Shown: positions 3,294-38,143 of the stretch, piece after piece
How the letters are laid out: each line of letters begins with the position of its first letter
Numbering within the stretch: position 1 is the first letter of the stretch
From: an uncultured Cytophagales bacterium
Lineage (GTDB): Bacteria > Bacteroidota > Bacteroidia > Cytophagales > JAAEPT01
DNA: 64,000 bases
NCBI GenBank assembly: GCA_964511645.1
Contig: CAZEGV010000004.1
Location: forward strand, 1,263-65,262
Direction of reading: 5' to 3'
Program-made: the position numbers and the translations under genes
Notes under the pieces: generated by a model
Database searches by the model: none
Told to the model about the DNA's origin: nothing
Seen by the model: only the letters and a program-made list of their open reading frames with translations

Positions 3294-3405
3294 GAGCTTC
3301 CCTCACTCGCTAAAAACGCTTCATAAGGTCGGGCTGTTCGTTATATCTTTTTTATTTGTATATTGTATAAAAGATAAAAAAGGATGCCACTACCATCCCT
3401 AAGCC
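3294..3405 (+). repeat. dispersed intergenic repeat, copy E (gagcttccc..ggtcgggct..hairpin..atccctaagcc)
   Basis: Shares the conserved blocks GGTCGGGCT and ATCCCTAAGCC with the copies at 8462, 26291, 34083 and 36682. It starts at the base after the nadE TAG. Confidence 0.75.
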
Positions 3406-3428
3406 ACACACGTAAAAAAACAACTACG

Positions 3429-5666
3429 ATGAAGCATCTATTAGTTTTTCGCATAACTCTTATCCTTATCACAGGAACCTGTTTCTCTCAAAGACCTCCA
3501 TATATTATTGTTGATCAATTTGGTTACCTCCCAGAAGCAAAAAAAATAGCCGTACTCAAAAACCCACAAACAGGCTTTGACAACAGTAATACTTACACAC
3601 CAAGCCCAACAATATCACTCATCAACAAAACCACCGGCTCTACAATCTTTACCGCTAGTCCACAAATATGGAATAACGGTAATACAGACCCATCTTCAGG
3701 AGACAAAGTATGGAGATTTGATTTTAGCTCCATCACCACAATAGGTGAATACTACATCCAAGATATCGCCAACAACGAAACATCTTACACTTTTGTAATA
3801 TCCGACACCGTTTATAACGCTGCACTCAAACACGCCTTTAGGTATTTTTATTATCAACGTTCTAACTTCTCCAAAGAAGCTCAATATGCAGGAAATTGGA
3901 CTGACGGGATAGACCATATGGGTCCTCTTCAAGATGCCGAATGTAGGTTATATTCTACCAAAACAGACATTTCAACCCAGCGTGACTTACGTGGTGGTTG
4001 GTATGATGCTGGCGATTATAACAAATACACATCATGGACAGCCGACTATATCATCCAACTCTTAATGACATACAAAGAAAACCCAAGCATCTGGACAGAT
4101 GATTTTGGTATTCCAGAATCAGAAAATGGAATTTCAGACCTCTTGGATGAAATAAAATACGGATTAGACCATCTTTTACGGCTTCAAGAAAGCAATGGAG
4201 GATTATTATCAGTAGTCTCTTGCGGAGATGCAAGTCCACCTAGTACCGCAACAGCTCAAAGCCTTTATGGACCTGCTACAACTAATTCCTCACTAATGGG
4301 AGCTTCAGCTTTTGCACTAGCAGCTACCATTTACACTGATAACACCTATAATCAAACACTTAAAATCGCAGCAGAAAATGCTTGGAGTTTTGCTATTGAC
4401 AACCCCAATCTAAAATTCTACAATAATGACGCAACTTACGGCACACAAGGAATAGCAGCAGGGCAACAAGAAGTAAATGATTACAAAAGGGCAATGTCCA
4501 AACTAAAAGCAGCAGCTTACTTATATGCCGCTACAGGAAACAACACTTACAAAATATTTTTTGAGAATAATTACACTAATGCTCATATGATTCAATGGTA
4601 CTATGTATATCCATTTGAGGCTCAAATACAAGATATGCTTTTGTACTACGCCTCTCTTACCGGAATAAATAACACCGTTTCAAACACCATCATATCACGG
4701 TATCAAGCAGGCATGGATAAAGACGAAATCTTTATTGCTTATGACAATGACAACGACTCTTATCTATCTCACCTCAAAGATTACACTTGGGGTAGTAATG
4801 GGCAAAAATCAAAAGTAGGCTTAGAATACATGAACCTTATCAATTATAACATTTACACCGCACGCCATACTGATGCCAAAAATGCAGCTTCGCATTATAT
4901 ACACTACCTACACGGAGTTAATCCTAAAAACATAAGCTACCTCACTAACATGAATAATTTGGGGGCTGAAAACTCGGTCAATGAAATTTTTCATTCTTGG
5001 TTTAATGATGATAACCCATTATATGATAGAGTTGGCGTATCTACTTATGGTCCAGCTCCTGGCTTCCTAGCAGGCGGTCCCAACCCTAATTATAGCATAG
5101 ACGGGTGTTGCCCTAATGATTGTGATGGAGTTGCTAATAATGCAAAATGTTTATCCGAAGATTTAAGTATCATCTTAAATCAACCCGATCAAAAGTCTTA
5201 TAAAGACTTTAACAACTCTTGGCCATTAAATTCATGGGAAGTAACTGAAAATAGTAATAATTATCAAGTGCACTACCTAAGATTATTAGCCAATTTCATT
5301 AAAAAACCTGACTGCAATGGTGACAAGGGAGGTACAGCAATTGTTGATTCTTGCGGAACTTGTGTAGAAGGTAATACAGGGATAACAGGGATATATAACC
5401 CTAACTTATGTATTACAGGAATTAAAGAATATAAACACCGTTTTTCCTTTTCAGTTTACCCCAACCCTATTAACGATGAGATTACCCTTTCTAGCTCTAT
5501 ACCAGGCATTAGTGAAGTATCCGATGTAAAGGGGAATTTAAAAGCGACATTGGGCATCGGTAACTCAAACAAAAAAATAAATCTATCAAATTGGGAATCA
5601 GGGATTTATATATTCAGAATAAGTACTTCAAAAGGTAATCAAACTATCAAAATCACTAAACTTTAA
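3429..5666 (+). CDS. glycoside hydrolase family 9 endoglucanase-like enzyme with a T9SS C-terminal sorting domain
   Basis: GH9-type motifs RGGWYDAGDYNKY and HYLHGVNP are present. The signal-peptide start is MKHLLVFRITLILITGTCFSQ at 3429. The C-terminus (VYPNPINDEITL...GIYIFRI...KITKL) resembles a Por_Secre_tail domain. The ORF-track start at 3384 lies inside the repeat and is probably spurious. Confidence 0.8.
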   Translation: MKHLLVFRITLILITGTCFSQRPPYIIVDQFGYLPEAKKIAVLKNPQTGFDNSNTYTPSPTISLINKTTGSTIFTASPQIWNNGNTDPSSGDKVWRFDFSSITTIGEYYIQDIANNETSYTFVISDTVYNAALKHAFRYFYYQRSNFSKEAQYAGNWTDGIDHMGPLQDAECRLYSTKTDISTQRDLRGGWYDAGDYNKYTSWTADYIIQLLMTYKENPSIWTDDFGIPESENGISDLLDEIKYGLDHLLRLQESNGGLLSVVSCGDASPPSTATAQSLYGPATTNSSLMGASAFALAATIYTDNTYNQTLKIAAENAWSFAIDNPNLKFYNNDATYGTQGIAAGQQEVNDYKRAMSKLKAAAYLYAATGNNTYKIFFENNYTNAHMIQWYYVYPFEAQIQDMLLYYASLTGINNTVSNTIISRYQAGMDKDEIFIAYDNDNDSYLSHLKDYTWGSNGQKSKVGLEYMNLINYNIYTARHTDAKNAASHYIHYLHGVNPKNISYLTNMNNLGAENSVNEIFHSWFNDDNPLYDRVGVSTYGPAPGFLAGGPNPNYSIDGCCPNDCDGVANNAKCLSEDLSIILNQPDQKSYKDFNNSWPLNSWEVTENSNNYQVHYLRLLANFIKKPDCNGDKGGTAIVDSCGTCVEGNTGITGIYNPNLCITGIKEYKHRFSFSVYPNPINDEITLSSSIPGISEVSDVKGNLKATLGIGNSNKKINLSNWESGIYIFRISTSKGNQTIKITKL

Positions 5667-5732
5667 AACCTCCTTTTTATTAATTTAATTTTTGCTATTT
5701 TAGGTTAAATTGGTTTATATGTGATAAAGAAT

Positions 5733-5740
5733 TATCTTTG
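5733..5740 (+). promoter_or_regulatory. Bacteroidota -7 promoter element (TAnnTTTG): TATCTTTG
   Basis: Exact match to the established Bacteroidota sigma-A -7 consensus, about 50 nt upstream of the E2 start codon. Confidence 0.4.
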
Positions 5741-5789
5741 TAAAATTACATGAGTGATAACTAGTATTCCAAAAATTTAAAATTACAAT

Positions 5790-7118
5790 ATGGCTATAGT
5801 AGAGGTTCGTATGCCCAAAATGGGAGAAAGTGTGATTGAAGGCACCATTTTGAAATGGATGAAGGGAGTTGGTGATAAGATCAATGAAGACGACTCTTTA
5901 CTAGAAGTAGGTACAGACAAAGTAGATACCGAAATACCGGCACCTAGTGATGGTGTTATTAAAACTTTACTCTACAAAGAAGGTGACGTCGTGCAAGTAG
6001 GACTTCCTATTGCTGAGATAGAAACCAACGGAACAGTAGCAACACCTAAACCCTCTCCTGCTATAGATAGTGCACCTATACAAAAATCAAATAACGACAT
6101 ACCTGGAACTGAGCTACTACAACCAATCACAGAAGTTACAACACCTGTAAACTTAAACGGTAGCAACAATGGATTTTTCTCTCCTTTGGTACTCAATATT
6201 GCCAAAAATGAAGACATATCATTTGAAGAATTAAGCAAAATAGCGGGAAGCGGAAAAGATGGAAGAGTTACTAAAAAAGATATTCTCAGCTTAGTTGAGA
6301 ATAAATCTAACAATGTCCCAATCACTGCTCAAGTAGAAACTACTAAATCAATCATATCTTCTCCTGCAACACCTGTATCGTCACCAGCTAAGTCGATAAG
6401 CGGAGAACATGAAATAATAGAAATGGGGCGTATGCGTCAGATAATTGCCAAAAGAATGGTAGAATCGATGCAAATCGCACCTCACGTTACTTCTTTTGTA
6501 GAAGCAGATGTCACCAATGTAGTTTTCTGGAGAAATAGACTCAAAACACATTTTAAAGAAAAAGAAGGTGTAGCTTTAACACTAACACCGTTATTTATAG
6601 AAGCCGTAGTAAAGTCTCTCAAAGACTACCCTATGATGAACGTATCGGTAGATGATAGCGGTAGCCGTATTATTGTCAAAAAAGACATTAATATAGGTAT
6701 TGCCGTAGCTTTACCTAGTGGAGACTTAATTGTGCCTGTTATTCATAATGCTGACCGATACAATCTCGTGGGGCTTACTACAAAGGTAAATGATTTAGCT
6801 AGACGTGCTAAACAAAACCAACTAAGTCCAGACGACCTACAAGGCGGCACATACACTATCTCAAATATGGGTTCTTTTGGCAATGTAATGGGTACACCTA
6901 TACTTGTACAACCTCAAGTAGGTATTTTGGCACTTGGTGCGATACAAAAGAAACCCGCAGTAATAGAAACTGACCAAGGAGATACTATTGGAATTAGACA
7001 TATGATGTACTTATCACATACTTATGATCACAGAGTAGTTGATGGTTCTTTAGGAGGGATGTTCGTACGAAAAGTAGCTGACTATCTTGAAGGGTTTGAT
7101 TTAGACAGAGAGGTTTAA
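5790..7118 (+). CDS. 2-oxo acid dehydrogenase E2 component (dihydrolipoamide acyltransferase)
   Basis: Lipoyl domain (EVGTDKVDTEIPAPSDG), a peripheral-subunit-binding segment (SPLVLNIAKNEDISFEELSKIAGSGKDGRVTKKDI) and a catalytic domain with HTYDHRVVDG. Confidence 0.85.
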   Translation: MAIVEVRMPKMGESVIEGTILKWMKGVGDKINEDDSLLEVGTDKVDTEIPAPSDGVIKTLLYKEGDVVQVGLPIAEIETNGTVATPKPSPAIDSAPIQKSNNDIPGTELLQPITEVTTPVNLNGSNNGFFSPLVLNIAKNEDISFEELSKIAGSGKDGRVTKKDILSLVENKSNNVPITAQVETTKSIISSPATPVSSPAKSISGEHEIIEMGRMRQIIAKRMVESMQIAPHVTSFVEADVTNVVFWRNRLKTHFKEKEGVALTLTPLFIEAVVKSLKDYPMMNVSVDDSGSRIIVKKDINIGIAVALPSGDLIVPVIHNADRYNLVGLTTKVNDLARRAKQNQLSPDDLQGGTYTISNMGSFGNVMGTPILVQPQVGILALGAIQKKPAVIETDQGDTIGIRHMMYLSHTYDHRVVDGSLGGMFVRKVADYLEGFDLDREV

Positions 7119-7134
7119 TAGCATCAAACCTCTC
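7108..7134. terminator. hairpin between convergent genes (gagaggttt / aaacctctc)
   Basis: A 9-bp perfect stem overlaps the E2 stop codon in the 28-nt gap between convergent genes. There is no clear T-tract. Confidence 0.35.
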
Positions 7135-7146
7135 GTCTTATAAAAA

Positions 7147-8400
7147 TTAACGTGTTCTAATCGCTTTCACAAATACCCCCTGACTATCTTTTGTGTCATA
7201 AATCTCAATAATCCCTTCAGCATCCAATCCTCTTGCGATAGAATAAGCTGGACCAAAGGCATAACCTTTTTTCGGTAAATCAGATTTTACAAAATGTTGT
7301 AAGTCAACAAAACCACTTGATTTGCTTTCTACTTCTTTTAACTCTTTCACCAAACCTTCTTTAGATATAATATTAAAAGCATCAAGTGACACTTCTTTTA
7401 CTGGCTGTGGTTTCTTCTCTACTACTTGTTGAACAGAAGCTGCTGGAGTTATTACTTCTTTAACTTCAGTTATTGGGTTTAGCTTTACACTAATTGGTTT
7501 AGCAACTGTTACTTTCTTTACTTGAGCCTGTGGCTTAATTTTAACAACTTTTACTTTTGCTGTTTTTTTCTTTACCGCTTTGGTTGTAGCTACTACTTTT
7601 TTAGGTTTAGCGGTAGGTGTACTTTTCTTCACTATACTTGTTGTGGGTTTTACTACTTGTTTTGAAATAACTGCAGTTACCTCTTTAGCTAATTTCTCAG
7701 CATCTTTTAAGTCCTTAGAAGAAGGGAATCCAGCATAATGCATGTCATTTAATTCCTTCCACTTATTCAATACTTTTTTATTTGGGAATGCTAGATCTAA
7801 TATTTTGGTATTATTTAATAAGTCTCTAAGCTCTTCCTTAGTGGTTAGTGAAATACTTAAGTCTATCAATCCGTTAGACGTTCTTTCTTTAACATGCCCA
7901 GAGATTATCTTTTTTGATTTTGATTCCCACCATTTTGATCCTTCTCCTTCTGCACAAAATTTACTTAGGCTATTTCTAATTGCAACTTCTAGTTGGTTGA
8001 CAAGTGGGGAGATTGATAATGAAACGTGGTCAGAAACTTCGTCTACTAATAATTGAATATTTGTAAATCCTAGTTTTTTACGGACATGAGTTAATAAATC
8101 ATGGCGAAATGAGTCTAGTTTGGCTAAACTTGTACTTGATAAACTAATAATAAAATGCTCGCTTCCTTTTGAAGTTTCTTGTATTTTTAAGTTAATCCCT
8201 AGCTTTTTATCTTGTATAACACTTTCTTTGGTGGTGTTTTTTAAAACTGCATTAGTCCATAATTTGTCTGAGTAGCACAATGCCATTGCTAATGATCTGA
8301 ATGTTTTAATTTCTGATTTCCCTGATGTGTCAGAGATCAATATTTCGTATTGGAATGTTTGGTTTTTGTTTATCATAGCTTTTTTTTTAGACTTGCTCAC
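7147..8400 (-). CDS. hypothetical protein with an unknown N-terminal region, a Lys/Val/Pro-rich histone-H1-like linker and a small C-terminal globular domain
   Basis: 417-aa ORF with a GTG start (alternative ATG at 8376). The low-complexity stretch is KPKKVVATTKAVKKKTAKVKVVKIKPQAQVKKVTVAKP. I recognise no family motif with confidence. Confidence 0.65.
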   Translation of the reverse strand: MSKSKKKAMINKNQTFQYEILISDTSGKSEIKTFRSLAMALCYSDKLWTNAVLKNTTKESVIQDKKLGINLKIQETSKGSEHFIISLSSTSLAKLDSFRHDLLTHVRKKLGFTNIQLLVDEVSDHVSLSISPLVNQLEVAIRNSLSKFCAEGEGSKWWESKSKKIISGHVKERTSNGLIDLSISLTTKEELRDLLNNTKILDLAFPNKKVLNKWKELNDMHYAGFPSSKDLKDAEKLAKEVTAVISKQVVKPTTSIVKKSTPTAKPKKVVATTKAVKKKTAKVKVVKIKPQAQVKKVTVAKPISVKLNPITEVKEVITPAASVQQVVEKKPQPVKEVSLDAFNIISKEGLVKELKEVESKSSGFVDLQHFVKSDLPKKGYAFGPAYSIARGLDAEGIIEIYDTKDSQGVFVKAIRTR

Positions 8401-8461
8401 TTGAACAGCTTTTCAAAATAAGTATAATATTTAATTTAACCAAGAAAAATAGGATAGAAAT

Positions 8462-8547
8462 GGCTTAGGGATTGACGTGGAAATCCTTCCCGATTTTTTT
8501 TCGGGAAGATTGGGAACAAAAAGCCCGACCGACAGGGAAGCCCCCAA
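8462..8547 (-). repeat. dispersed intergenic repeat, copy A
   Basis: Plus strand reads ggcttagggattgacgtggaaatccttcccgatttttttttcgggaagattgggaacaaaaagcccgaccgacagggaagccccc. This is the reverse complement of the C/D/E orientation. Confidence 0.8.
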
Positions 8548-8561
8548 TTTTCAAATCTAAA

Positions 8562-11030
8562 CTACAAAGTAACCAAGATAGCTGCTTTTATAGTTAAATT
8601 TTGTGCTTTGGGTAGGTCTGTATAACTCAGCCTGTGATAGATTTGTACACGTAAGAATTTAAAAATATTTTCTAATCCATAACCAATTTCAGCATAAGGC
8701 TTAGCTTCCAATGTGTTCAATTTCAAATTTCCAGATGCATCTAGCTTTTTATTGATTTCAGATAGCCCTCCCCAAACAATATTGGAGGTCATTACGGCAC
8801 GCCACTTAAGCTTTTTGATTAAAGGAATTCTATTCATAAAAAATCCATCAAATCGATGAACGTGAGTAAACTGAATATATTCATCTGAAGCAAATTCAAA
8901 AAAGTTCATTGTATTATTGGCATATACCGAATAGAAAGGGGTAGGGTTTCCTAAATGAACTTTGAGTAAATGTAAAGGTACGGGATTGAAAATTTTACCT
9001 CCTTTAATCCAAAATTTAGTTCTCCCGAATCCTCCTAAGCCTATTTTCTTAAACACAGTCAAGTCCAACCTGTGGTATTCTAAATCACTACCTAATACTC
9101 CGCTTGCTCCATAGGTATAGTCAAGGTCAAAAGTAGGCCATTTGGAACCTCCCAGACGCTTTCTATTGATTCCATTTACAGCATAAACTTCATTCTTGGC
9201 AAATCTTAAGCTTGTTACTATTTCGTTGGTTGTTAGGTTTGATTTGATTTCTGATTGGTTATTTGGGTTATGATAGGCGTAGTTAAATAAAGGGCTTTTT
9301 TCGTTATGTTTTAATTTTATTTTGGTAGAGAAATGCCTATTTAGCTGTCTGTAAATAGATACACTTTGCTCATTGTTCCACATTGCACCGCTCTGAGTCC
9401 CCCATTTTGTAAAGATATCAAAAAGCTCACTTTGTACTAAACCTGTAATGCCTAATAAGTCTATTTCATTTTTGGATGCAAATTGTAATTCTGTCCATGG
9501 TTTTCTGTGTACAATAATCTTAACTTTTGCTCCATACTTCCAAGCATTGTCTCCTGTTCCGTAAGCTGTATATCCTTGTAGTTGTATGTTGCTACTGAAT
9601 TCATTAAATGTTTTAAAACCTAATCTTAAGCGATGTTTTTCAATAGTATTATAGGCGTACAATCTACTGTATGTCCCTAACCATATTTTTTTGTTTAATA
9701 TTGGGTAACGTCCACCAAATACGGCATCTATGATGTCTAAATATGATTTCACAATTGGTGAATCACTTACTTCTTTTACTAATTCATTTGCACGAAGTTC
9801 ATCGGCAGTAAGGGAATCTGCTCTGTTTTCTTTCCAAAATTTTTCTGATTTATCTCTTCTGTCATCTGCCAAATCAAGACCATATTCAAAGTGTTTATCA
9901 GGAAACTCATCTATCAATTTAACATTTGAATAAGCGGTACGGGTTCTTATAAGTAAACCTGTCATGTTTTTACTCAGCTCCTTCACTCCTACTTCTAGGT
10001 AAGTGTCTTTAGGGAACCAAAAACTTTCTTCTGATTTTTTCCATTCCCTATTGATTGAGAGTTTGTCGATAAAATTAAGATTAGCCGTTTCCTGTAGCTT
10101 CATTTCTAACCTACGGATTGCATAATCACTATAACCGATATACATCTCACCAACAAAAGCTAAGTCTTGGGCTCTTTTGGGTCTAAATTTGATATAATAG
10201 ACGGAATCTCCTTGATATATTATACTTGTATCTAGTAGCATGTATTTATAATTAGATTTCCAAAAGGCCGATACTGGTGAGAGTAATTCTTTTCCAAATG
10301 CTGTAATCGTATTGTCGTACAAATTAAATTGCTGATATGATGCTCCTACAAATTGAGATACCAAACCACCGTCTTCAATCCCTAAACCACTTGCTTTGGT
10401 GGCTACTACGGTTTCTTTTTGAGTGTAAGGGTTGTTTTTAGCTGAAAATTTTGACACTGTTTCAAAGATGTAAATTGGTAACAAGTCATTTCCATCTTCA
10501 TCCTTTAGCAAGTCTAACTCTTGTACAGCCTCTCCTATTTTTTGTAAGATTTTTTTTTCTTTAAATTTTTCGGTGATATTATCTGCGTCAACTTCTATCC
10601 TACTGTAACTATCATATTTATAACCCGATGACTTACTATAATCATTTTGTTTTTTATATCTGTTAATCTCTCTTAATACATTAAAAGCAGGGTTCTCGGC
10701 AGCCACTAAAACTACTTTCTCTAATTCTACGGCATCTTCTCCTGTGTAAATGTCAATTATCTGAATAGACTCATTCGTTACGTAAATAGATTTAGGTTTT
10801 ATTCCAAAGGCAAGTACCCGCAAGCTATCATCTCCAGATGGCAATGAGATGCTGTACTTCCCATCTATATCAGTTTGGGTAGTTTTACTTGTTTTTACAG
10901 ATTTGATTGTAGCAAATGGCAAAGTAGATTCTCCATCTTGGGCATATACCACACCTGATACGTTCACCTGAGCCAAAGAAGCTAGAGATACGCAAAAAAT
11001 AGCTATAATTAATAATACTTGTTTTCTCAT
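8562..11030 (-). CDS. DUF5686-like protein with an N-terminal carboxypeptidase-regulatory-like domain (predicted outer-membrane associated)
   Basis: Signal peptide MRKQVLLIIAIFCVSLASLAQ, then a CarboxypepD_reg-like segment (VSGVVYAQDGESTLPFATIKS..TDIDGKYSISL). The ATG at 11030 overlaps the trmH TGA (ATGA). The ORF-track start at 11087 is probably too long. Confidence 0.65.
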   Translation of the reverse strand: MRKQVLLIIAIFCVSLASLAQVNVSGVVYAQDGESTLPFATIKSVKTSKTTQTDIDGKYSISLPSGDDSLRVLAFGIKPKSIYVTNESIQIIDIYTGEDAVELEKVVLVAAENPAFNVLREINRYKKQNDYSKSSGYKYDSYSRIEVDADNITEKFKEKKILQKIGEAVQELDLLKDEDGNDLLPIYIFETVSKFSAKNNPYTQKETVVATKASGLGIEDGGLVSQFVGASYQQFNLYDNTITAFGKELLSPVSAFWKSNYKYMLLDTSIIYQGDSVYYIKFRPKRAQDLAFVGEMYIGYSDYAIRRLEMKLQETANLNFIDKLSINREWKKSEESFWFPKDTYLEVGVKELSKNMTGLLIRTRTAYSNVKLIDEFPDKHFEYGLDLADDRRDKSEKFWKENRADSLTADELRANELVKEVSDSPIVKSYLDIIDAVFGGRYPILNKKIWLGTYSRLYAYNTIEKHRLRLGFKTFNEFSSNIQLQGYTAYGTGDNAWKYGAKVKIIVHRKPWTELQFASKNEIDLLGITGLVQSELFDIFTKWGTQSGAMWNNEQSVSIYRQLNRHFSTKIKLKHNEKSPLFNYAYHNPNNQSEIKSNLTTNEIVTSLRFAKNEVYAVNGINRKRLGGSKWPTFDLDYTYGASGVLGSDLEYHRLDLTVFKKIGLGGFGRTKFWIKGGKIFNPVPLHLLKVHLGNPTPFYSVYANNTMNFFEFASDEYIQFTHVHRFDGFFMNRIPLIKKLKWRAVMTSNIVWGGLSEINKKLDASGNLKLNTLEAKPYAEIGYGLENIFKFLRVQIYHRLSYTDLPKAQNLTIKAAILVTL

Positions 11031-11689
11031 TTTTCCAAAAACTGTTCTTCCAGTTGAGCAGCACTTTTTACTATTCTTTTGTACCACTTCAAAGTTAACT
11101 CTTTTCTTTCCTCTTCCGAAAGATAAAAATTAATTTTTTCATTTCTCATCTTAAAAGACAAGTGTTGCATACAAAGGGCCGCACTTACCGAGATATTAAA
11201 ACTTTCGGTAAAGCCATACATAGGGATTTTTACAAACTCATCTGCCTCAGTTCTCACCTCATCGCTAATACCTTCTTGCTCTGTACCAAAGACCAAAGCA
11301 AAAGGTGTAGACACGTCAAAATCATCCAAATCTATATCATCAGTATGTGGAGTGGTGGCTACAATTCTATAACCTTTCTTTTTGAGTTTCTGTAAGGTTT
11401 CTACCGTTGCACTTTCTTTATTTTCGTTACTGTATTGATGTAAATCAATCCATTTGGAAGACCCTAGCACAACTTTAGGATTCAATTCGTACTTGAATTT
11501 ATTTTCGATAACATGTAAATCCTGTACTCCAAAACAATCACACGTTCTGATTACAGCACTAGCATTATGGGGCTGAAAAATATCTTCTAGCACAATAGTC
11601 ATGTGACGTGTACGCTGAGATAAAACTTTTTGTATTTTACCTTTTTTATTGTCTGTAATAAATGTTGCCAAGTATTCTGTAAATGTCAT
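11027..11689 (-). CDS. trmH: tRNA (guanosine-2'-O)-methyltransferase, SpoU/TrmH family
   Basis: 220 aa. LEDIFQPHNASAVIRTCDCFGVQDLHVI and the C-terminal SpoU knot motifs (FGTEQEGIS, IPMYGFTESFNISVSAA) are present. Confidence 0.8.
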   Translation of the reverse strand: MTFTEYLATFITDNKKGKIQKVLSQRTRHMTIVLEDIFQPHNASAVIRTCDCFGVQDLHVIENKFKYELNPKVVLGSSKWIDLHQYSNENKESATVETLQKLKKKGYRIVATTPHTDDIDLDDFDVSTPFALVFGTEQEGISDEVRTEADEFVKIPMYGFTESFNISVSAALCMQHLSFKMRNEKINFYLSEEERKELTLKWYKRIVKSAAQLEEQFLEK

Positions 11690-11700
11690 CTTAGAACTAT

Positions 11701-14421: not shown

Positions 14422-14481
14422 AGAAATACCCTAAATTGTCTTAAATTGCGATAAATATATAAAATCAATCCTATAAGCACT

Positions 14482-18651: not shown

Positions 18652-18660
18652 AAAAAAAAA

Positions 18661-22185: not shown

Positions 22186-22187
22186 TT

Positions 22188-25199: not shown

Positions 25200-25201
25200 T
25201 C

Positions 25202-26279
25202 ATGACAAAAGACCAACTAAAAAATCTCCAAAAAAGAGTAACCGCCTTAGGGCAATATCTTTGACTACGATCGCAAAAAAATAGACGTAGAAGAAGCAGA
25301 ACTCAAAACCACACAACCCGACTTTTGGAACAACTCCAAAAAAGCAGAAATAACCCTCAAAGAAATAAGAGGAATAAAAGTTTGGACAAACGGATACGAA
25401 GCCATACAAACAGCATTAGAAGACCTCGAAATACTTCACGAATTCCAAGAAATGGGAGAAATAGAAGCATTAGAAGTTGATAAAGCCTACCAAGACACCA
25501 TTACGCTTACCGAAGACCTAGAATTTAAAAGAATGCTAGGAGGAGAAGAAGACCAACTTAGTGCAATGCTTCAAATAAACCCAGGAGCAGGAGGAACAGA
25601 ATCTAACGACTGGGCATCAATCCTCATGAGAATGTACATCATGTGGGCAGAAAGTCAAGGATTCAAAGTACGGCAAGTCAACTACCAAGCAGGAGAAGTA
25701 GCAGGAATAAAATCTTGCACACTAGAAATAGACGGTGACTTTGCTTACGGTTATCTCAAATCCGAAAATGGTGTACATCGTTTAGTTCGTATCTCACCCT
25801 TCGACTCTGGCGGTCGTCGGCACACCTCATTTGCATCCGTATTTGTATACCCCGTTGTTGATAATACTATTAATATAGAAGTCAATCAAGCAGATGTAAA
25901 ATGGGATACTTTCCGATCTGGAGGAGCAGGAGGGCAAAACGTAAACAAAGTAGAAACAGCTGTAAGGTTACACTACAAAGACGATGAAATTGTAATAGAA
26001 TGCTCACAAGAACGGGCACAATTGCTTAATAAAGAGAAAGCACTCCAAATGCTTAAATCACAACTTTATCAAAAAGAAGTAGAAAAAAGAAATGCCAAAC
26101 GAGACGATGTAGAAGCCAACAAAAAAAATATAGAATTTGGCTCTCAGATTAGAAATTACGTCTTACACCCTTACAAGCTCGTCAAAGATGCCCGCACAGG
26201 GTATGAACGAAGCGATGCAAACAATGTATTAGATGGCGATATTAGCGACTTTATAAAATCATACTTAATGAGCCAATAA
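25202..26279 (+). CDS. prfB: peptide chain release factor 2, expressed through a programmed +1 frameshift (frame 0 is 25202-25261, then frame +1 is 25263-26279)
   Basis: Frame 0 reads MTKDQLKNLQKRVTALGQYL then TGA. After skipping T25262 the reading is DYDRKKIDVEEAELKTTQPDFWNN..., which joins the ORF-track fragment 25452-26279 in frame. The GGQ motif (SGGAGGQNVNK) and the RF2 SPF motif (RISPFDS) are present. Confidence 0.92.
25247..25265 (+). other. prfB +1 frameshift site with upstream SD-like GGG (TTA GGG CAA TAT CTT TGA C)
   Basis: The slippery CTT followed by an in-frame TGA C, with a G-rich element 6 nt upstream, matches the established RF2 autoregulatory site. Confidence 0.9.
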
Positions 26280-26290
26280 ATTAAAAATAA

Positions 26291-26385
26291 TTGGGGCATC
26301 CCCCTACGGGTCGGGCTTTCGCTACTCAATCTTTCCGATAAAAAAATCGGAAAAGATTTCAAACAGACCGCTCTATCCCTGATGC
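26291..26385 (+). repeat. dispersed intergenic repeat, copy C
   Basis: ggggcatcccc..ggtcgggctttcgctactcaatctttccgataaaaaaatcggaaaagatttc..atccctgatgc. It begins 11 nt after the prfB TAA. Confidence 0.8.
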
Positions 26386-26413
26386 GGTACAATGCACACA
26401 TAACAAACTAAAA

Positions 26414-27193
26414 ATGACAATATTACAAACAGCCGAACGAGTATCACACCAAGACCTATCCGATAACTTTGTTTACCAACGATCACTACTTGCCTACGTA
26501 GAAGCCGCCAAGCTAGTCAGCGGAAAAGTATTAGAGATAGGTACAGGAAGCGGATACGGGATAGACATTATCAGTCAAAACTGTGAAAAATTTGTAACTA
26601 TTGATAAATTTGTAAACGAACCACTACAAGCCCGTAAAGATTTACCAAAAAACATTGAGTTCAAACAAATCACAATCCCACCACTTACAGGTATAGAAAG
26701 CAATAGCTTTGATTTTGTTATTACATTTCAAGTAATTGAACATATACAAGATGACAACGCCTTTGTAAGCGAAATAAACCGTGTACTCAAAAAAGGAGGC
26801 AAGTTAATCGTGACCACACCCAACAAACCAATGTCCATAACCCGTAACCCTTGGCACATAAGAGAATACAGCATTGATGAATTACACACTATTTTGAAAA
26901 AAAAATTTACATCCGTAGAAAACAAAGGAGTAACAGGAAACCAAAAAATATTTGACTACTATAACAAAAACAAAGCCTCTGTACAAAAAATAACCCGTTT
27001 TGACATCTTTGATTTACAACATAAATTACCACGCCAAATCTTACAAATCCCTTACGACATCCTTAATCGAATAAACCGTAAAAAATTACTTAAAAATAAT
27101 TCAGGATTAGTTTCAGACATCAAAATGGAAGATTATAAAATCAAAGAAGTAGACAATACTTGCTTTGATTTATTTTATATCGCTACCAAATAA
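26414..27193 (+). CDS. class I SAM-dependent methyltransferase
   Basis: 259 aa. SAM-binding motif VLEIGTGSGYG and post-I/II motifs (FDFVITFQVIEH, LKKGGKLIVTTP). Confidence 0.75.
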   Translation: MTILQTAERVSHQDLSDNFVYQRSLLAYVEAAKLVSGKVLEIGTGSGYGIDIISQNCEKFVTIDKFVNEPLQARKDLPKNIEFKQITIPPLTGIESNSFDFVITFQVIEHIQDDNAFVSEINRVLKKGGKLIVTTPNKPMSITRNPWHIREYSIDELHTILKKKFTSVENKGVTGNQKIFDYYNKNKASVQKITRFDIFDLQHKLPRQILQIPYDILNRINRKKLLKNNSGLVSDIKMEDYKIKEVDNTCFDLFYIATK

Positions 27194-29385: not shown

Positions 29386-29390
29386 ATAAC

Positions 29391-30440
29391 TTATATAAGG
29401 ATAGAAGTTTTACAGAAATGTAAGCTATGCAGTATGTTATATTTATTAAGAAGCACATTATATTGTTTTTCATAACCCGTACTTATTATTCTTTCTTCCT
29501 TACTCAGACTGCCTACCGCTTGAAATAATTCAACATTAGTACCTCCCTTCATCTCCAGATATATAATTAAGAAATAAATTAATAAGCCTTCAATAAATTT
29601 TTTATAATTATCTGAGCCCTTGTATTCATCGCTAACAAACCCTTCAAATCGATTAAAGTCAAAAAGAAATTGTTTCAAAACACGAAGATTGTTATATTTT
29701 GCTGTTTGAAAAACATTAACTACAATCTCTTTAAATGGCTCATAATCAAAAACTTTGACATCTTTCCCAATCTCTTTAATGAAACCGTCTAATACTGTAC
29801 CAACATTGTTTTGAACCTTAAAGGTTTGTCCTATTAATTTCTCCTTTACTTTTCTATATACTTGATATCCATCATCACTGCCTCCTATTTTTATTTGGTC
29901 AGCAACAAGTATTACTTTACAACCATAATGCTCTACAAAGTCATTAATGTAGCCGAACATTGTTTCAGTGTTAATTTTACATCGTTCTAAATCATCAAAC
30001 ACTAAAATGCGTCTACCTCTCACCTTATCGGTATTCTTAAGTTCAAATATTTTAAACACATCTAAGGCATAAGATAATGTGCCATCATTTTTATTGTCAG
30101 CCGCATTAAAATCAATATCAAATTTTAATGATGATTTCAAAAGCCCCTTCCCTAATTCTTTAATGAAATTAGCACTTTTAGAGTGTAGAATTGGGTAGAT
30201 TTGAGACTTGATTTTCTCTGTAACCCTTCCCATATTCTCGATTCCATTCAGGCTTATATAAATTGGCTTCATTACAACAGAATCTCCACACTCTTCCACT
30301 TCCTTCCCCCAGCTGTCTAAAACTTTTTTAATAAAGTATGTTTTCCCACTTCCCCACTCCCCTGTTAACATCACAGCATAGCCGGGGGTCTTTAATCTTA
30401 TATAATAGTCTAAATAATCAGTAACGTGTTTATTATTCAT
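29391..30440 (-). CDS. KAP-family P-loop NTPase (soluble, short form)
   Basis: 349 aa. Walker A is GEWGSGKT (aa 27-34) and the KAP-type Walker B is ILVFDDLERC (about aa 145-154). There is no hydrophobic insert between them. Confidence 0.8.
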   Translation of the reverse strand: MNNKHVTDYLDYYIRLKTPGYAVMLTGEWGSGKTYFIKKVLDSWGKEVEECGDSVVMKPIYISLNGIENMGRVTEKIKSQIYPILHSKSANFIKELGKGLLKSSLKFDIDFNAADNKNDGTLSYALDVFKIFELKNTDKVRGRRILVFDDLERCKINTETMFGYINDFVEHYGCKVILVADQIKIGGSDDGYQVYRKVKEKLIGQTFKVQNNVGTVLDGFIKEIGKDVKVFDYEPFKEIVVNVFQTAKYNNLRVLKQFLFDFNRFEGFVSDEYKGSDNYKKFIEGLLIYFLIIYLEMKGGTNVELFQAVGSLSKEERIISTGYEKQYNVLLNKYNILHSLHFCKTSILI

Positions 30441-30783
30441 AATTCTTTATTTTCAACGAAAACATTTCTGTTATTATAAGAACAAAAAAACAACTTTACT
30501 AAAAAAAGAGTTGTGTTTTTTTTTCATTGCCTTTGTAGTACGAAAATTGTAATATTTTAAAAAGTAAAAGAATACACAAAAACAATTCTCTTAACAAAAT
30601 AGCGCTCGAATTCCTGAGTGGACGGATGCACATTCGCGAAAATCATTTGTTGTTGTTTGTACTTCAACAAGTTCAGTATGACGAAATCAGAAAACAATAC
30701 TCTCGATTAAAAATCGAGATAGACTCCCGCCAAACAGAGAGGAAGAGCCCTAAAATCTACCAATACAGCAAGTAGAAACAACA

Positions 30784-32691: not shown

Positions 32692-32772
32692 AAAAAGAAA
32701 ATCATTTTACCCTAAAACCATAGAATAGTTTTGGACGTTAAGTAACTTGCACGCAATTAGGACAAAAAAAGA

Positions 32773-34083
32773 ATGGCGGATAAGGTTGTAATATGGAGTT
32801 TTGAGAAGGCATTTACGTATCGTACATGTATGCACCAAATATATTTTATCAAAACAGCACTCAAGCACTCAAGAAGAGCCAAGATATGGATTGGCTTAGT
32901 TTTATTATTCAAAATCCCTTACTACACCATTAGTCGGCTATTTGGTAACCAACGATTTTTCAACTCTTATTTCAAATCCTTCCGAAACCTTAACGTAGAA
33001 GAATTTGAAACCTACATCAAAGAAGAATTAAGTGGCTACTTTACACACCACCTCAACGAATTTGTATACCCTAAAATAGAAGAGTACAAATCCTTAGGCT
33101 ACAAACAATACATTATTGGCTCATCACCAGAAATACTACTCAAGCACATAGTCAGCAGATTAGAGCTTGATGGGTATATAGGGTCAATTTTAGAGCAAAA
33201 AAAAGGGCGATTTACTAGAAAAACGACACAACGCATCGTAAGTAAATCAGAAAAAAAGAAAGCTTTTCAAAACTTACTAGAGAAGTATAAAATTAATTCA
33301 CACAACACAGAAATCATTGCTTACGGTTCTAAAAACACTGATAGCCCACTACTCAAACTTGCCAATAAATCCTATATAGTAAACCCTCAGTGTAAACTAA
33401 AACGAAAAGCAAAAAAAGAAACCTGGGAAATTATCAAAGAAAAAACTATTCCTTACCCCTACCCTAAAATCATTACTTTTAACTTCTACCTAATATTAAA
33501 AATGTGGTTGCGTAGCACCAAAGGGATTTATAACATCCCTGCCAAAGGTCCCGTCTTACTCATTGCTAATCACAGTAGCTATCTCGATCATTACACTATT
33601 GGCACACTCTCTGCTTTTTTCTTAAAAAGACGTGTACATTTTGCCGCCAAAAAAGAACATTTTATCAAAAACTGGGAAAATAAATTTCACCGTTATTTTG
33701 GTGCAATTCCCATTGATCGGGCGGCATTTCGACCATCTAGCGTTAAGAATATGATGGAAGTTTTTGATGATCAAAACATTTTACTTATCTACCCAGAAGG
33801 CACAAGAAGTCCTGACGGAAAAATGAAAACATTTAAAAAAGGTTTTTTATTTCTACAACAAAAAGCAAAAGTTCCTATTGTACCCGTGTACATTCATAAT
33901 GCACACGAACTGCTACCAAAAGGAAAAATAGTACCTAGATTTGGCAAAGATATAGAAGTAATCATAGGTGAGCAAATCTCTTATGAAGACTATCAACTTA
34001 ATAGCGAGAACGAAGATCAACTCATGGAAATGTTTAAACAAAAAGTTGCAGAACTTGAACAAAAAACATTAAAAAACAATTAG
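32773..34083 (+). CDS. fusion of a HAD-IB-like domain (catalytic motifs degenerate) and a lysophospholipid acyltransferase (PlsC-type)
   Basis: 436 aa. The C-terminal half has the HX4D motif (ANHSSYLDH) and IYPEGTRSPDG. The N-terminal half aligns by eye to SerB-like HAD-IB proteins but reads VVIWSFEKAF where DxDxT is expected. Confidence 0.65.
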   Translation: MADKVVIWSFEKAFTYRTCMHQIYFIKTALKHSRRAKIWIGLVLLFKIPYYTISRLFGNQRFFNSYFKSFRNLNVEEFETYIKEELSGYFTHHLNEFVYPKIEEYKSLGYKQYIIGSSPEILLKHIVSRLELDGYIGSILEQKKGRFTRKTTQRIVSKSEKKKAFQNLLEKYKINSHNTEIIAYGSKNTDSPLLKLANKSYIVNPQCKLKRKAKKETWEIIKEKTIPYPYPKIITFNFYLILKMWLRSTKGIYNIPAKGPVLLIANHSSYLDHYTIGTLSAFFLKRRVHFAAKKEHFIKNWENKFHRYFGAIPIDRAAFRPSSVKNMMEVFDDQNILLIYPEGTRSPDGKMKTFKKGFLFLQQKAKVPIVPVYIHNAHELLPKGKIVPRFGKDIEVIIGEQISYEDYQLNSENEDQLMEMFKQKVAELEQKTLKNN

Positions 34084-34184
34084 GGCGTTCCCACATTCGC
34101 CAAAAAAGCTCATGTGGTCGGGCTATTCGTTTCCAATCTTCCCGATGAAAAATCGGAAAGGATTTCCACTACTATCCCTTACGC
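34083..34184 (+). repeat. dispersed intergenic repeat, copy D
   Basis: gggcgttcccacattcgccaaaaaagctcatgtggtcgggctattcgtttccaatcttcccgatgaaaaatcggaaaggatttccactactatcccttacgc. It begins at the stop codon of the upstream gene. Confidence 0.8.
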
Positions 34185-34202
34185 AACCAATGAAATAACC
34201 AT

Positions 34203-34814
34203 TTAGAAAGCATTAATATTTGAAAAAACATAATATAAATCCCTCGCAATCTCTATGCTCCTTTCTTTATATTTTTCTTTTTGTAGCGAAGTACCATCAA
34301 ACACTTTAGGATCTTCAAAGATAAATAATATTTTTTGTTCCGACCCTCTCACTATTGGGCAACCATTATCAGCCCCAGAACAAGTCATCACTGCCCCAAA
34401 CCCTGATTGAGGATTAAACTCATCATCATACTTTTTAGAAAAACCAATAACAGAAGGTTCATTATCTGTATATTTAATACTATACACAGGATTCCCTTCT
34501 TCCGACAACTTCTTAATATGAAACCCTGTATCATTTAAAACCTCTACTACCATTGGGTATACCTCAGTAGCTTCCGTACCTCCAGAGTAGCAATGCACAC
34601 TATTGATATCGAAATAATAAGCCATCACCTGTGCCCATATTTGAGACAAATGACTCCGCCTAGAATTATGTGTACAAATAAAATTAAGACGGATAATTTC
34701 TTTTTTATCCACCTTAATTTGAATATAATCAATCAGTACTTGTAATACAACTTTCCTATCAATAGATAAAGTTCCTATATTAATCGTTTTCTGAATCTTT
34801 TTAAACATCTTCAT
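34203..34814 (-). CDS. arsC: arsenate reductase, low-molecular-weight phosphotyrosine-phosphatase type
   Basis: 203 aa. CX5R(S/T) P-loop FICTHNSRRS. It lies in an ars-type gene context. Confidence 0.75.
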   Translation of the reverse strand: MKMFKKIQKTINIGTLSIDRKVVLQVLIDYIQIKVDKKEIIRLNFICTHNSRRSHLSQIWAQVMAYYFDINSVHCYSGGTEATEVYPMVVEVLNDTGFHIKKLSEEGNPVYSIKYTDNEPSVIGFSKKYDDEFNPQSGFGAVMTCSGADNGCPIVRGSEQKILFIFEDPKVFDGTSLQKEKYKERSIEIARDLYYVFSNINAF

Positions 34815-34819
34815 TTATA

Positions 34820-35260
34820 TTAACAGCAACCTCCACCTGGTGTACAAGAAGTTTCCTCTTCTGCTTCAGGCACACCGCAATTATCTTTTGCTAAACAATC
34901 TGTTTGTTTTGTAGTAAGAATAAAATTTTCTCCATCAAAATCCAACCCAAATTTACCGATAGTTTCAGCTTGATACTCTACTTCAATTTCTGAATCCGAA
35001 ATACCCAGTACACGCTCTGATAATTCTATGATTTTTAATAATTTTTCTGGGTGCAAACGATGATCGTAGTCATTAGCATTCCAAAGCTGAAAATTAACAA
35101 CCTCCTCCGTTCTTACTACTCCACCACAGTCTATAAAATGCTTTGAAACTTTCCCTATTTCCGTCACATGAAAATGACTTGGCACTAAATCTCCATTCGG
35201 TAATTGAAATGCTATTTCACTTAAATTTTCTAACTGTTTTTTTACTTCTGATAATTTCAT
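34820..35260 (-). CDS. DUF6428-like protein of Bacteroidota ars clusters
   Basis: 146 aa. It sits between arsR and arsC and has a Cys-rich C-terminus (CTPGGGCC). The family assignment is from memory of ars-operon contexts. Confidence 0.5.
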   Translation of the reverse strand: MKLSEVKKQLENLSEIAFQLPNGDLVPSHFHVTEIGKVSKHFIDCGGVVRTEEVVNFQLWNANDYDHRLHPEKLLKIIELSERVLGISDSEIEVEYQAETIGKFGLDFDGENFILTTKQTDCLAKDNCGVPEAEEETSCTPGGGCC

Positions 35261-35278
35261 TTTTATGTAATTTAATAT

Positions 35279-35608
35279 TTAACAACATTTTTGTTTCGCA
35301 AGTATCATTTCAGAAATATCACCAATCATAAGTTCTACTTGTTTCCACTTATCTTGATTGATACAATAACAAATATTTTTCCCTTCTATCGCCCCTTTTA
35401 TCAATCCTACACGCTTTAGTTCTGATAAATGCCTAGAGATAGTAGGCTGAGCCAATGGTAATTCCTCTACAATATCATTACAAATACAAGACGATGTATT
35501 GGCTAAATGTAGCACAATAGAAAGCCTTGCAGGATGACCTACCGCTTTTAATATCTCTGCCATTTCGGTGATTTTAATAGAAAAACCATCTGTTTTTGTT
35601 ATTCCCAT
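35279..35608 (-). CDS. arsR: ArsR/SmtB-family metalloregulator
   Basis: 109 aa. The winged HTH reads HPARLSIVLHL..CICNDIVEELPLAQPTISRHLSELKRVGLI, with a metal(loid)-binding Cys pair before the HTH. Confidence 0.85.
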   Translation of the reverse strand: MGITKTDGFSIKITEMAEILKAVGHPARLSIVLHLANTSSCICNDIVEELPLAQPTISRHLSELKRVGLIKGAIEGKNICYCINQDKWKQVELMIGDISEMILAKQKCC

Positions 35609-35618
35609 ATTGCAATAT
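35607..35618. promoter_or_regulatory. perfect 12-bp palindrome ATATTGCAATAT overlapping the arsR start codon (possible operator)
   Basis: The sequence is self-complementary. Its position at the arsR 5' end suggests autoregulation, but it lies downstream of any likely promoter. Confidence 0.25.
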
Positions 35619-35706
35619 TAGAATATGTTTTTGACATTTGAAAGAAGATGAACAGTTTTATAAAAAAAATATCTATATTTATATATATACATCAACATTA
35701 TTTAAT

Positions 35707-36333
35707 ATGAGAACGTTTTTATACCCTCTTTTAATTCTAATACTTGCTAGTTGCAGTCCTAAGGCACAAACTCAAACTGGTTTAATAAAATTGGATACCA
35801 CTACTATTAAAGAAAAAATAATAAATGAAAATTTATTCATTACACAGTGCGACACGCTAGACAAAAGGGATTTCATCATCTCTAGAAAAAGAAAAGATTT
35901 GTTCGTTTTTAAAGAAATGACTTTTTTGTACTGTAGTCCTTCACTTAATAATGAGGTAATAGACACCTTATATCTAAACGAAAAGACTAGGTCTTGGAGA
36001 GAGTTTAGTTTAACGACAACAGCGTATTGGAGCAAACCCGATTGGTACGAAGTGTATTTCAAAAATAAAAAAGGGTATTTATTTAGCAATGATTTAGCTA
36101 ATTTACGATTAAGAGCGAGTAATGTTCTTGTAAAAGAAAACCCAGAAGGTGTCGGGGGAGTGCTACTAAAAAGTGTAGATAGCACCCACCAGTTAATTGA
36201 CACAATAAGACTCAGAAAGAGCCACGGATACGGTATACACCCATTAACTAACAACGGATTAAATTTTAGTAAAAATGTACTTAAGTATCGTACATATAGG
36301 GAAAGTTGTCCTGGGACAAGTTCTATAAGTTAG
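35707..36333 (+). CDS. lipoprotein of unknown function, terminated by an in-frame TAG that looks premature
   Basis: Start MRTFLYPLLILILASCSPKAQ (lipobox LASC) at 35707. The ORF-track TTG start at 35638 is unlikely. The stop is TAG at 36331-36333. Confidence 0.6.
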   Translation: MRTFLYPLLILILASCSPKAQTQTGLIKLDTTTIKEKIINENLFITQCDTLDKRDFIISRKRKDLFVFKEMTFLYCSPSLNNEVIDTLYLNEKTRSWREFSLTTTAYWSKPDWYEVYFKNKKGYLFSNDLANLRLRASNVLVKENPEGVGGVLLKSVDSTHQLIDTIRLRKSHGYGIHPLTNNGLNFSKNVLKYRTYRESCPGTSSIS

Positions 36334-36672
36334 ATTGCTGTAGATAAAAATGGTCAATTAAAAAACATCATTGGGTCGTATCTTGGGGAGGAGTCTTATT
36401 CAACTGTCTTTTTTCCCTTAAAATTTGGGGAAAAGATTTTCTTAGTAGAAGAGGCTGATATTAATGGCATTTTTAACCAGAACACTGGTGAGTTAAGGAT
36501 TTTCCCTTACCCAAAAGGTATAAAAGTACCTATTGAAGAATTAATAGTTGTTGTTACGGTTGACTTAGAAGAAGTTGACGATGAAGATGGTGACTTTCGC
36601 TATAACGAAGTTAATAAACGTACCCAATATTATAGGTGGGATGGTGAGAAGGCAGTTGAGGTAAAATTTTAA
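36334..36672 (+). pseudogene. 112-codon in-frame continuation of the preceding lipoprotein gene, with no start codon of its own
   Basis: My translation is IAVDKNGQLKNIIGSYLGEESYSTVFFPLKFGEKIFLVEEADINGIFNQNTGELRIFPYPKGIKVPIEELIVVVTVDLEEVDDEDGDFRYNEVNKRTQYYRWDGEKAVEVKF, ending at TAA 36670-36672. There is no in-frame ATG, GTG or TTG. Confidence 0.5.
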
Positions 36673-36681
36673 CATTAGTTA

Positions 36682-36785
36682 GGCTTAGGGATTGACGTGT
36701 AAATCCTTTTTTTTTAATCCTAAGTCAATAAAAAATAAAAAAAGATTGGGAACAGAAAGCCCGACCGTAGGGGAGAAATAGCCTC
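36682..36785 (-). repeat. dispersed intergenic repeat, copy B (central hairpin replaced by an A/T-rich one)
   Basis: Plus strand reads ggcttagggattgacgtgtaaatcc..gattgggaacagaaagcccgaccgtaggggagaaatagcctc. Confidence 0.75.
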
Positions 36786-38141: not shown

Positions 38142-38143
38142 CT

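Follow-up and report, generated by a model that had tools for sequence, protein, structure and literature searches.

The window analysed here, a 64,000-nucleotide (nt) stretch of contig CAZEGV010000004.1 from an uncultured Cytophagales bacterium, contains five dispersed copies (A to E) of a structured repeat, most of them placed at the ends of genes. The TAG stop codon of the open reading frame (ORF) encoding an NAD synthase (NadE; 1494..3293) falls within the TTAGG of copy E, and that of an acyltransferase ORF (32773..34083) within the TTAGG of copy D. Copy A begins 14 nt past the stop (8562-8564) of ORF 8562..11087 (-), and copy C begins 11 nt past the prfB stop (26277-26279), with the start of a methyltransferase gene at 26414; copy B is the exception to this stop-codon adjacency in the window. 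The host contig codes for GldM and Por_Secre_tail proteins, that is, for gliding and type IX secretion system functions. Identity of the window NadE falls from 76% and 72% in its nearest relatives to around 60% in Cytophagales, indicating that the organism has few close relatives in the databases. The five repeats almost certainly belong to Flavo-1 (RF01705), a structured element found between genes, and in many copies per genome, in Bacteroidota, chiefly Flavobacteriia.

Copies E, D, A and B match the Rfam model above its gathering score of 42 bits, and all four matches lie on the strand opposite to that on which the repeats were described in the initial annotation (hereafter, the initial orientation). 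Copy C gave no RF01705 report even at E<=1. A covariance model of our own (R1), trained on copies from other organisms and on copy A, recovered all five repeats (E-values from 6e-20 to 3e-9) and nothing beyond them in the 64 kb at E<=0.01, which places this five-copy family far beyond chance. The five copies listed in the initial annotation are therefore present and share the blocks attributed to them, and the Rfam motifs of Bacteroidota without known function, among which it proposed to look, include the matching family. In the initial orientation (alignment A1), the common blocks are TT(A/G)GG-[5 nt]-CC, GGTCGGGCT, (C)AATCT, a variable hairpin, GGAT(T/G)..C and ATCCCT-[5 nt], and GGTCGGGCT has five exact matches in the window, one per copy. 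The window copies share with the published family (PMC2864571) the blocks AGGGAU, GGAAAUCC, AGAUUG and AGCCCGACC, a long hairpin whose tip varies, the phylum and the occurrence in many copies, here five per 64 kb. Copy C represents a subfamily with a 3' strand some 7-8 nt longer (GATTTCAAACAGACCGCTCT) that aligns end to end with the rest of the family in R1, and that also scores below the Rfam gathering score at five other loci (L025, L141, L176, L186 and L199). Across copy C and these five loci, the longer 3' strand reads GGATTTCAAACA(G/A)ACCGCT.

Table 1. Coordinates of the five Flavo-1 copies in the window and of their outer helix (P0) and expansion hairpin (P6).
Feature	Position	Strand	Description
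Copy E	3290..3405	- (Rfam strand; initial orientation +)	RF01705 61.1 bits on 3323-3409 (-); R1 46.9 bits, on 3290-3411
Copy E, P0	3296-3299 with 3401-3404		GCTT with AAGC, plus A3295.C3405 (G.U on the other strand)
Copy E, expanded P6 hairpin	3301..3328	-	CCTCACTCGCTAAAAACGCTTCATAAGG; walked stem; "extra module" of the initial annotation
Copy A, minimal form	8462..8547	+	RF01705 48.4 bits on 8458-8534 (+); R1 86.3 bits
Copy A, P0	8542-8538 with 8466-8462		GGCTT with AAGCC; P6 is CC-CTGTC-GG
Copy C	26291..26385	-	GATTTCAAACAGACCGCTCT; R1 75.2 bits; no Rfam report
Copy C, P0	26296-26300 with 26381-26385		GCATC with GATGC
Copy D	34080..34184	-	RF01705 53.8 bits on 34112-34192 (-); R1 78.4 bits
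Copy D, P0	34085-34088 with 34181-34184		GCGT with ACGC, plus U.U
Copy D, expanded P6 hairpin	34091..34117	-	CCACATTCGCCAAAAAAGCTCATGTGG; six unbroken Watson-Crick pairs walked from the CC/GG closing pairs
Copy B	36682..36813	+	RF01705 47.7 bits on 36673-36770 (+); R1 64.2 bits on 36675-36789
Copy B, P0	36807-36804 with 36686-36683		GCTT with AAGC, plus A36808.C36682
Copy B, long P6 module	36802-36765		contains GGCTATTTCTCC

Flavo-1 was introduced by Weinberg et al. 2010 (PMC2864571) in a single descriptive sentence, with 239 representatives, and by number of occurrences it ranks among the most abundant small RNA ("sRNA") families in Rfam (PMC9029176). The literature since 2010 describes no function for it and contains almost no discussion of it.

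Comparison of copies from many sources revealed that the Flavo-1 unit is a closed, covarying three-way junction formed by P0, P6 and the long hairpin, and that it is larger than the published model. The Rfam model spans 76 nt and stops at AGCCCGACC, leaving the 5' GCGUU unpaired, as does the published alignment, and it truncates each copy by 15-45 nt on the 3' side. In contrast, the window copies and 101 others continue through P6 to a 3' AACGC that pairs with GCGUU. Read on the Rfam strand, the unit opens with GCGUU-A-GGGAU, extends into a long rod (P1-P5) in which two 3x3 purine loops (GNA/GNA) are conserved and the tip varies, and ends in AGCCC-GA-CC[P6]GG-(G/U)-AACGC-CC(A/U)AA. P6 lies between P0 and the core, is closed by CC/GG and ranges from CC-N4-GG, with a 4-nt loop, to about 40 nt, its stem comprising 2 to 15 walked pairs. 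The junction linkers are very short: the first has zero or one base, the second has two (GA on the Rfam strand) and the third has one.

The copies used in this comparison were collected mainly with a metagenome pattern scan, which returned 104 loci using a pattern that fixed GGTCGGGCT, CAATCT and ATCCCT and left the ends unconstrained, so that the conservation of these three blocks in the sample arises by construction. A scan of genome contigs with GGTCGGGCT-N9-CAATCT (15 fixed bases) produced mostly chance matches in G+C-rich genomes, with around 12 real loci among the matches listed. The five bases following ATCCCT take 18 forms (AACGC, CACGC, TACGC, AATGC, CATGC, AAGCC, TTTGC, ATTGC, CTTGC, TTGCC, CACCC, CACAC, AACAC, CTCGC, AACGT, ATGCC, GATGC and CGCGC), and in most copies their exact complement is found upstream, just before CC. 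In a MAFFT-only alignment of 25 short copies, fitted to no structure, 94.3% of the cells are paired (82.9% in shuffles) and the covariation score of 0.271 (0.074 in shuffles) was reached by none of 500 shuffles. P0 is 95.2% paired in this alignment, with double changes at four of its five pairs, and RNAalifold predicts P0, P6, P1, P2 and P5 from it de novo. A larger alignment fitted to the model (101 distinct copies, taken from other genomes and from metagenomes), which leans towards the model and counts a single inherited change many times, gives 95.3% of paired cells against 80.7%, and 96.4% for P0, with double compensatory changes at all five pairs. The covariation that the initial annotation had suspected from three end haplotypes is thereby borne out. 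P1-P5 covary as well, within the long imperfect hairpin, conserved internal loops and variable-length tip that characterise Flavo-1. Single-sequence folding energies are not separable from those of shuffles (z from -2.5 to +0.75); it is covariation only that carries the structural case.

The end pairings originally proposed for copies A, C and D are correct. For copy E the proposed GGCTT/AAGCC holds for GCTT/AAGC, its fifth pair being A.C (G.U on the other strand). The existence of copy B was confirmed, with its end 28 nt beyond the proposed 36785, and its proposed pairing (GGCT/AGCC) was found to be wrong: the internal GGCT, which R1 had also used as the 5' arm, is not the true arm, the real one being AGCTT at 36808-36804, preceded by the conserved TTAGG. 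We placed this left end from the homologous copies L216, L163, L185 and L223, all of which have the TTAGGAGC.TCCC ... GGGCTATTTCGCCC module of copy B. Covariation with the 3' arm (ATGCC) in L216 is shown by the upstream block (AGCAT) and not by the internal GGCTA block, which identifies the upstream arm as the true P0 arm and sets the span of copy B. The extra module noted in copies D and E is likewise real and constitutes a long form of P6; the type present in copy E recurs in L143, L206, L185, L169, L192 and L223. All copies carry P6 in some form, copy B holding another long one (GGCTATTTCTCC), and the single-sequence fold of copy D yields a three-way junction that includes its expanded P6.

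Three seemingly interrupted copies (L001, L079 and L113) were considered as evidence that the two halves of Flavo-1 form the ends of a larger element; they turned out to have long P5 tips, with the right half following after 60-100 nt, and no larger parent element carrying the two halves as its ends was found. In L001 (45-231) and L079 (111-281; Hyunsoonleella aquatilis), the P5 tip contains an insert of about 80 nt with a common motif, GCGTCTTTGCGAGGGAGGAACGACCGTGGCAATCTC, suggestive of another Bacteroidota repeat nested within Flavo-1.

The genomic context was analysed with crude ORF calls around 117 distinct copies, some of which occupy orthologous sites and are not fully independent. Flanking genes are co-directional with the initial orientation as sense at 31 copies and with the Rfam orientation as sense at 22, convergent at 23 and divergent at 10. 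The left end of the initial orientation (TTTGG-GCGTT) lies a median of 14 nt from a same-strand stop codon (within 30 nt in 39 of 62 cases), against medians of 81-111 nt for the other three kinds of adjacency. In either orientation, copies most commonly start 0-15 nt past a stop codon, and the stop codon is inside the element in copies E and D and in L032, L124 and L182. Compared with its 76%-identical relative (599 aa), in which the element is missing, the window NadE is neither longer nor shorter at the C-terminus; copy E therefore begins exactly at the native nadE stop. Convergent gene pairs often harbour two facing copies, 35-63 nt apart and one per gene, and several copies are located directly 3' of a terminator hairpin and T-tract. 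In Flavobacterium psychrophilum, copies whose Rfam strand is antisense follow closely the stops of mrcA, proC, pheS, porR and hutU. Flank conservation does not extend beyond TT(T/A)GG on one side and a single A/G on the other (<=5 nt).

Several lines of evidence mildly favour the Rfam strand as the one that folds, and only to that extent displace the initial orientation. P5 was walked inward from its anchored closing pair, with both strands treated alike, and single mismatches flanked by Watson-Crick pairs were counted. Sixteen of these are G.U on the Rfam strand (C.A on the opposite one), as opposed to a single G.U on the strand of the initial orientation, and over all modelled pairs wobbles number 49 on the Rfam strand versus 26. 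The minimum free energy (MFE) is lower on the Rfam strand in 106 of 117 copies, with means of -30.4 versus -26.4 kcal/mol. Furthermore, the conserved 3x3 loops read GNA/GNA on the Rfam strand and are pyrimidine-rich on the other; by established RNA thermodynamics, GNA/GNA loops can form tandem sheared G.A pairs.

Array data point in the same direction. The only transcriptome study discussing Flavo-1 (Guerin et al. 2021, PMC9723704) reports its hits in F. psychrophilum, 128 in the genome (Table S3), as lying "indistinctly" sense or antisense to transcribed regions, many being untranscribed. In our own reading of that table, based on a sample of 19 of its Flavo-1 rows, the Rfam-strand probes of nine fall in one tight expression cluster (A1747) and those of 12 in a broader cluster, C143, which includes tRNA-Cys. 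The signal of the clustered probes rises from around 6-8 up to 10-14 on agar and low-nutrient media, independently of the behaviour of neighbouring genes and of sense or antisense placement. At copy 0035 the Rfam-strand probe reads 14.2 within a surrounding transcript of about 7, and five sampled copies (0001, 0006, 0008, 0015 and 0018) are at background on this strand. The original authors did not comment on this common probe profile. It is likely to reflect cross-hybridisation among copies, perhaps to a few abundant transcripts; even so, at least one abundant RNA with the Rfam-strand sequence must exist.

Signals that would mark Flavo-1 as an autonomous transcription unit were not detected. 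No Bacteroidetes -7 box (TAnnTTTG) was present within 40 nt upstream of the Rfam-strand 5' end in any of 112 copies, a scan for sigma-70-type promoters stayed at chance level, and so did terminator-like sites, none of which coincided with the main hairpins or offered a U-tract. Flavo-1 therefore does not qualify as an independent sRNA gene with its own promoter and terminator at a fixed distance, nor as an intrinsic (Rho-independent) terminator, given that no U-tract directly follows a G+C-rich hairpin. On both strands of P5, a U-run lies 5' and an A-run 3' of the hairpin, and the two are paired with each other.

Hallmarks of conventional mobile elements were equally scarce. The only terminal inverted repeat is the covarying 5-bp P0, and no transposase was seen beside the copies examined in the window and at inspected loci, nor any REP-associated tyrosine transposase (RAYT) near them, in a survey that did not extend to a genome-wide search. 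The known repetitive extragenic palindromic (REP) sequence or miniature inverted-repeat transposable element (MITE) with a cognate transposase that the initial annotation envisaged did not emerge from these few copies or from published REP tables; the "atypical" REPs of Bacteroidetes RAYT subclass 2.6 (Quentin 2018) are unrelated hairpins of 24-35 nt without the Flavo-1 blocks. Phages yielded no match, a pattern match in a viral contig being a chance hit in G+C-rich DNA, and one Flavobacterium plasmid matched. A likeness to tRNA through a 3' CCA was also dismissed, since just 62% of the copies have A at the third flank position and CCNAA fits better, and so was one to integron attC sites as generally known, in which the GTT/AAC arms occur in the opposite order, Flavo-1 copies being dispersed rather than arranged in cassette arrays.

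Other observations are signs that the family propagates. The density of copies is high (five in 64 kb here, 128 in F. psychrophilum), and lineage-specific variants of P0, P5 and P6 are common to unrelated loci. Cores of the AAGCC/TCCCGA type in the window are 93-100% identical to copies in contigs that otherwise do not resemble it, and 64 nt of the copy A core are 100% identical to a copy in an unrelated metagenome contig (L129). Upstream of purA, a copy is present in L128, L140 and L142 and absent from a fourth contig; the gene pair that flanks this copy is found in the window as well (62031-62830), without Flavo-1 and with an extra 111-aa ORF (62476..62811) in the interval before purA. Flavo-1 is also absent after nadE in relatives, and those with NadE 76% and 72% identical are not syntenic downstream, which left no empty-site comparison there. 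A BLAST search with joined flanks retrieved one orthologous element-free site, too diverged to define the ends. Another sequencing run of the same organism yielded a 9.7-kb contig that stops inside copy A (L121, at 9642-9680 of that contig), which suggests that Flavo-1 repeats break short-read and metagenome assemblies.

Among known systems, there are parallels with the REP sequences, bacterial interspersed mosaic elements (BIMEs) and REPINs of Proteobacteria, which likewise occur between genes in high copy number and fold as single strands that show compensatory changes, and which also occupy gene 3' ends and operon interiors, are rare in promoters, and form inverted doublets and lineage-specific subfamilies. 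REPs are, however, simple hairpins of 20-40 nt with a GT[AG]G foot that flank a cognate RAYT (TnpA-REP) gene, whereas Flavo-1 is a three-way junction of 90-135 nt with a TT(T/A)GG flank motif and no GTAG foot, and thus falls outside the REP definition in this respect. The Correia elements (NEMIS) of Neisseria and the ERIC (IRU) elements of enterobacteria resemble Flavo-1 in being intergenic, 100-150 nt long, co-transcribed and folded into long hairpins in mRNA. They differ in having terminal inverted repeats of the protein-recognised type and, in Correia, a TA target duplication, their structure being a by-product of the repeats; Flavo-1 has neither feature, and its helices covary.

We tentatively favour a reading of Flavo-1 as a non-autonomous repeat of REP-like character, which would depend on its folded single strand for propagation or maintenance and be transcribed only as a passenger. 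A process reading this folded strand, putatively the Rfam strand as single-stranded DNA (ssDNA) or RNA, would multiply or homogenise copies within a lineage, and the invariant nucleotides of the loops and junction would presumably be recognised by a trans-acting factor. Copies would persist where they are harmless, that is, just after stop codons or terminators and rarely between divergent genes. Having no promoter or terminator of their own, they would be transcribed only as passengers of their neighbours, and where the Rfam strand is transcribed, its compact fold may survive as a stable RNA fragment. A number of observations weigh against this interpretation. An exact empty site was not found, orthologous comparisons being available only at 70-75% identity; tests for target-site duplication (at fixed offsets, and as the longest word common to both flanks) gave nothing above shuffled pairings; and no mobilising or binding protein was identified. 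The neighbours of the examined copies are housekeeping genes (PriA, ThrRS, AsmA and a glycosyltransferase), and copy orientation shows no link to local GC skew, a noisy proxy for replication (46 vs 47), unlike that of IS200/IS605-type ssDNA elements. Outside P3 and P5 wobble counts are even (about 25 vs 25), and the near-invariance of the loops across Flavobacteriia and Cytophagia, together with the abundance of a strand-specific RNA, fits a functional RNA equally well. The constraints already mentioned on the context statistics and on block conservation belong here too.

Such a functional RNA is rather unlikely in our estimate, though still a credible rival. Flavo-1 would here be a multi-copy stable small RNA, as its Rfam label ("Gene; sRNA") states, cut from read-through transcripts and acting in trans, for instance by partnering a conserved RNA-binding protein as its RNA moiety or by sponging it, with wrong-way copies remaining silent. 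The near-invariant loop and junction nucleotides across classes, the strand preference of purine loops, G.U asymmetry and MFE, the isolated signal of copy 0035 and the shared A1747 and C143 profiles are all in keeping with it. Against this, neither promoter motif nor terminator accompanies the copies, about half of them are antisense to the only surrounding transcription and several are at background, the common profile may stem from cross-hybridisation with a handful of transcripts, no association with transcribed regions was seen by the original authors, and 128-300 copies per genome would be unusual for an sRNA gene. It is likewise rather unlikely, though credible, that Flavo-1 is a cis-acting mRNA element of gene 3' ends and intercistronic regions, with a fold formed by either strand that blocks 3'-5' exonucleases, provides an RNase processing site or insulates from read-through, as the REP/BIME sequences of E. 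coli do. The adjacency to stop codons, including the five copies that contain one, the excess of convergent over divergent sites, the head-on doublets serving one gene each, and the initial-orientation strand being part of 3' or intra-operon transcripts after mrcA, proC, pheS, porR and hutU would all follow from it. Yet copies show only a mild orientation bias with respect to the upstream gene (62 vs 43), wobbles and loops favour the strand that is usually not the mRNA in the commonest arrangement, there is no U-tract, and in F. psychrophilum copies 0002, 0004, 0007, 0008 and 0012 are found in divergent promoter regions; a simple hairpin would moreover suffice for stabilisation, leaving the invariant loops unexplained.

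An ordinary MITE, in which Flavo-1 would be a deletion derivative of an insertion sequence (IS), moved via terminal inverted repeats and folding into a hairpin as a by-product, agrees with the dispersed, short, intergenic and multi-copy nature of the repeats and with their variable interior, and its parent IS would have ends TTTGGGCGTT... and ...ATCCCTAACGC. This reading is highly improbable and, in its classical form, essentially excluded: the sole inverted terminal sequence covaries instead of being conserved, internal helices covary too, and target-site duplications, a longer parent and a transposase beside the examined copies are all missing. The preference of the initial annotation for selection on an RNA or ssDNA structure over the decay of a simple MITE is supported, and now stands on considerably firmer ground. 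Finally, we regard as very unlikely a bacterial counterpart of short interspersed nuclear elements (SINEs), with a tRNA-sized three-way-junction RNA being copied into DNA via an RNA intermediate; the grounds for it are only an A-rich 3' flank and the absences listed above. At its 3' end the Rfam-strand unit has CC(A/U)AA and then a stretch rich in A, so that on the DNA a T-run precedes the element; in many cases this T-run belongs to an intrinsic terminator, as its T-tract, or to the A/T-rich sequence downstream of a stop codon. If the SINE-like reading were true, priming of reverse transcription at the T-run would explain the placement after stops and terminators and the link to the orientation of the upstream gene, and copying of this kind would also account for selection on the RNA strand, for lineage-specific "master copy" subfamilies and for the lack of terminal inverted repeats and transposase. 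In a weaker form, Flavo-1 RNA could be the ligand of a phylum-wide RNA-binding protein. As a separate observation, contig L216, which bears Flavo-1, contains an Rfam match to group II intron D1-D4 (10851-10960, 44.9 bits), and at least one Flavo-1 host may thus harbour a reverse-transcriptase-bearing element.

Other features were recorded in the window. A tRNA-Arg (ACG) gene at 38068-38142 is directly followed by a strong 13-bp terminator-like hairpin with a T-tract (38144-38175). The ORF upstream of copy C (25452-26279) matches only PCRF positions 74-194 and the RF-1 domain; given the programmed +1 frameshift of prfB, the N-terminal portion of release factor 2 would be expected further upstream, in a different frame. 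The stretch at 35638-36671 comprises a 231-aa ORF without Pfam match ending at 36333, then some 340 nt devoid of ORFs of at least 80 aa up to the stop just before copy B, and includes a hairpin (36409-36436) 75% identical to the P5 region of copy C; it may represent either a gene that has been disrupted or a fragment of a decayed element. A match to the Bacillus sRNA ncr1015 at 59032-59153 is weak (32.8 bits, E 0.79, the gathering score being 60) and almost certainly due to chance.

For this window alone, the result is an ordinary one, namely five more members of a known family. What is new is the outer stem P0, the expansion hairpin P6, the subfamily missed by Rfam and the statistics on genomic context. 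The extended unit, with P0 and P6, provides a better search model, and Flavo-1 hits should not be called sRNA genes by default in genome annotation. Given the closed junction, the absence of transcription signals belonging to the copies themselves and their clustering at stop codons in both orientations, the question posed by this family in the Bacteroidota moves from the targets of sRNA regulation to what reads the fold, and how the fold is copied.

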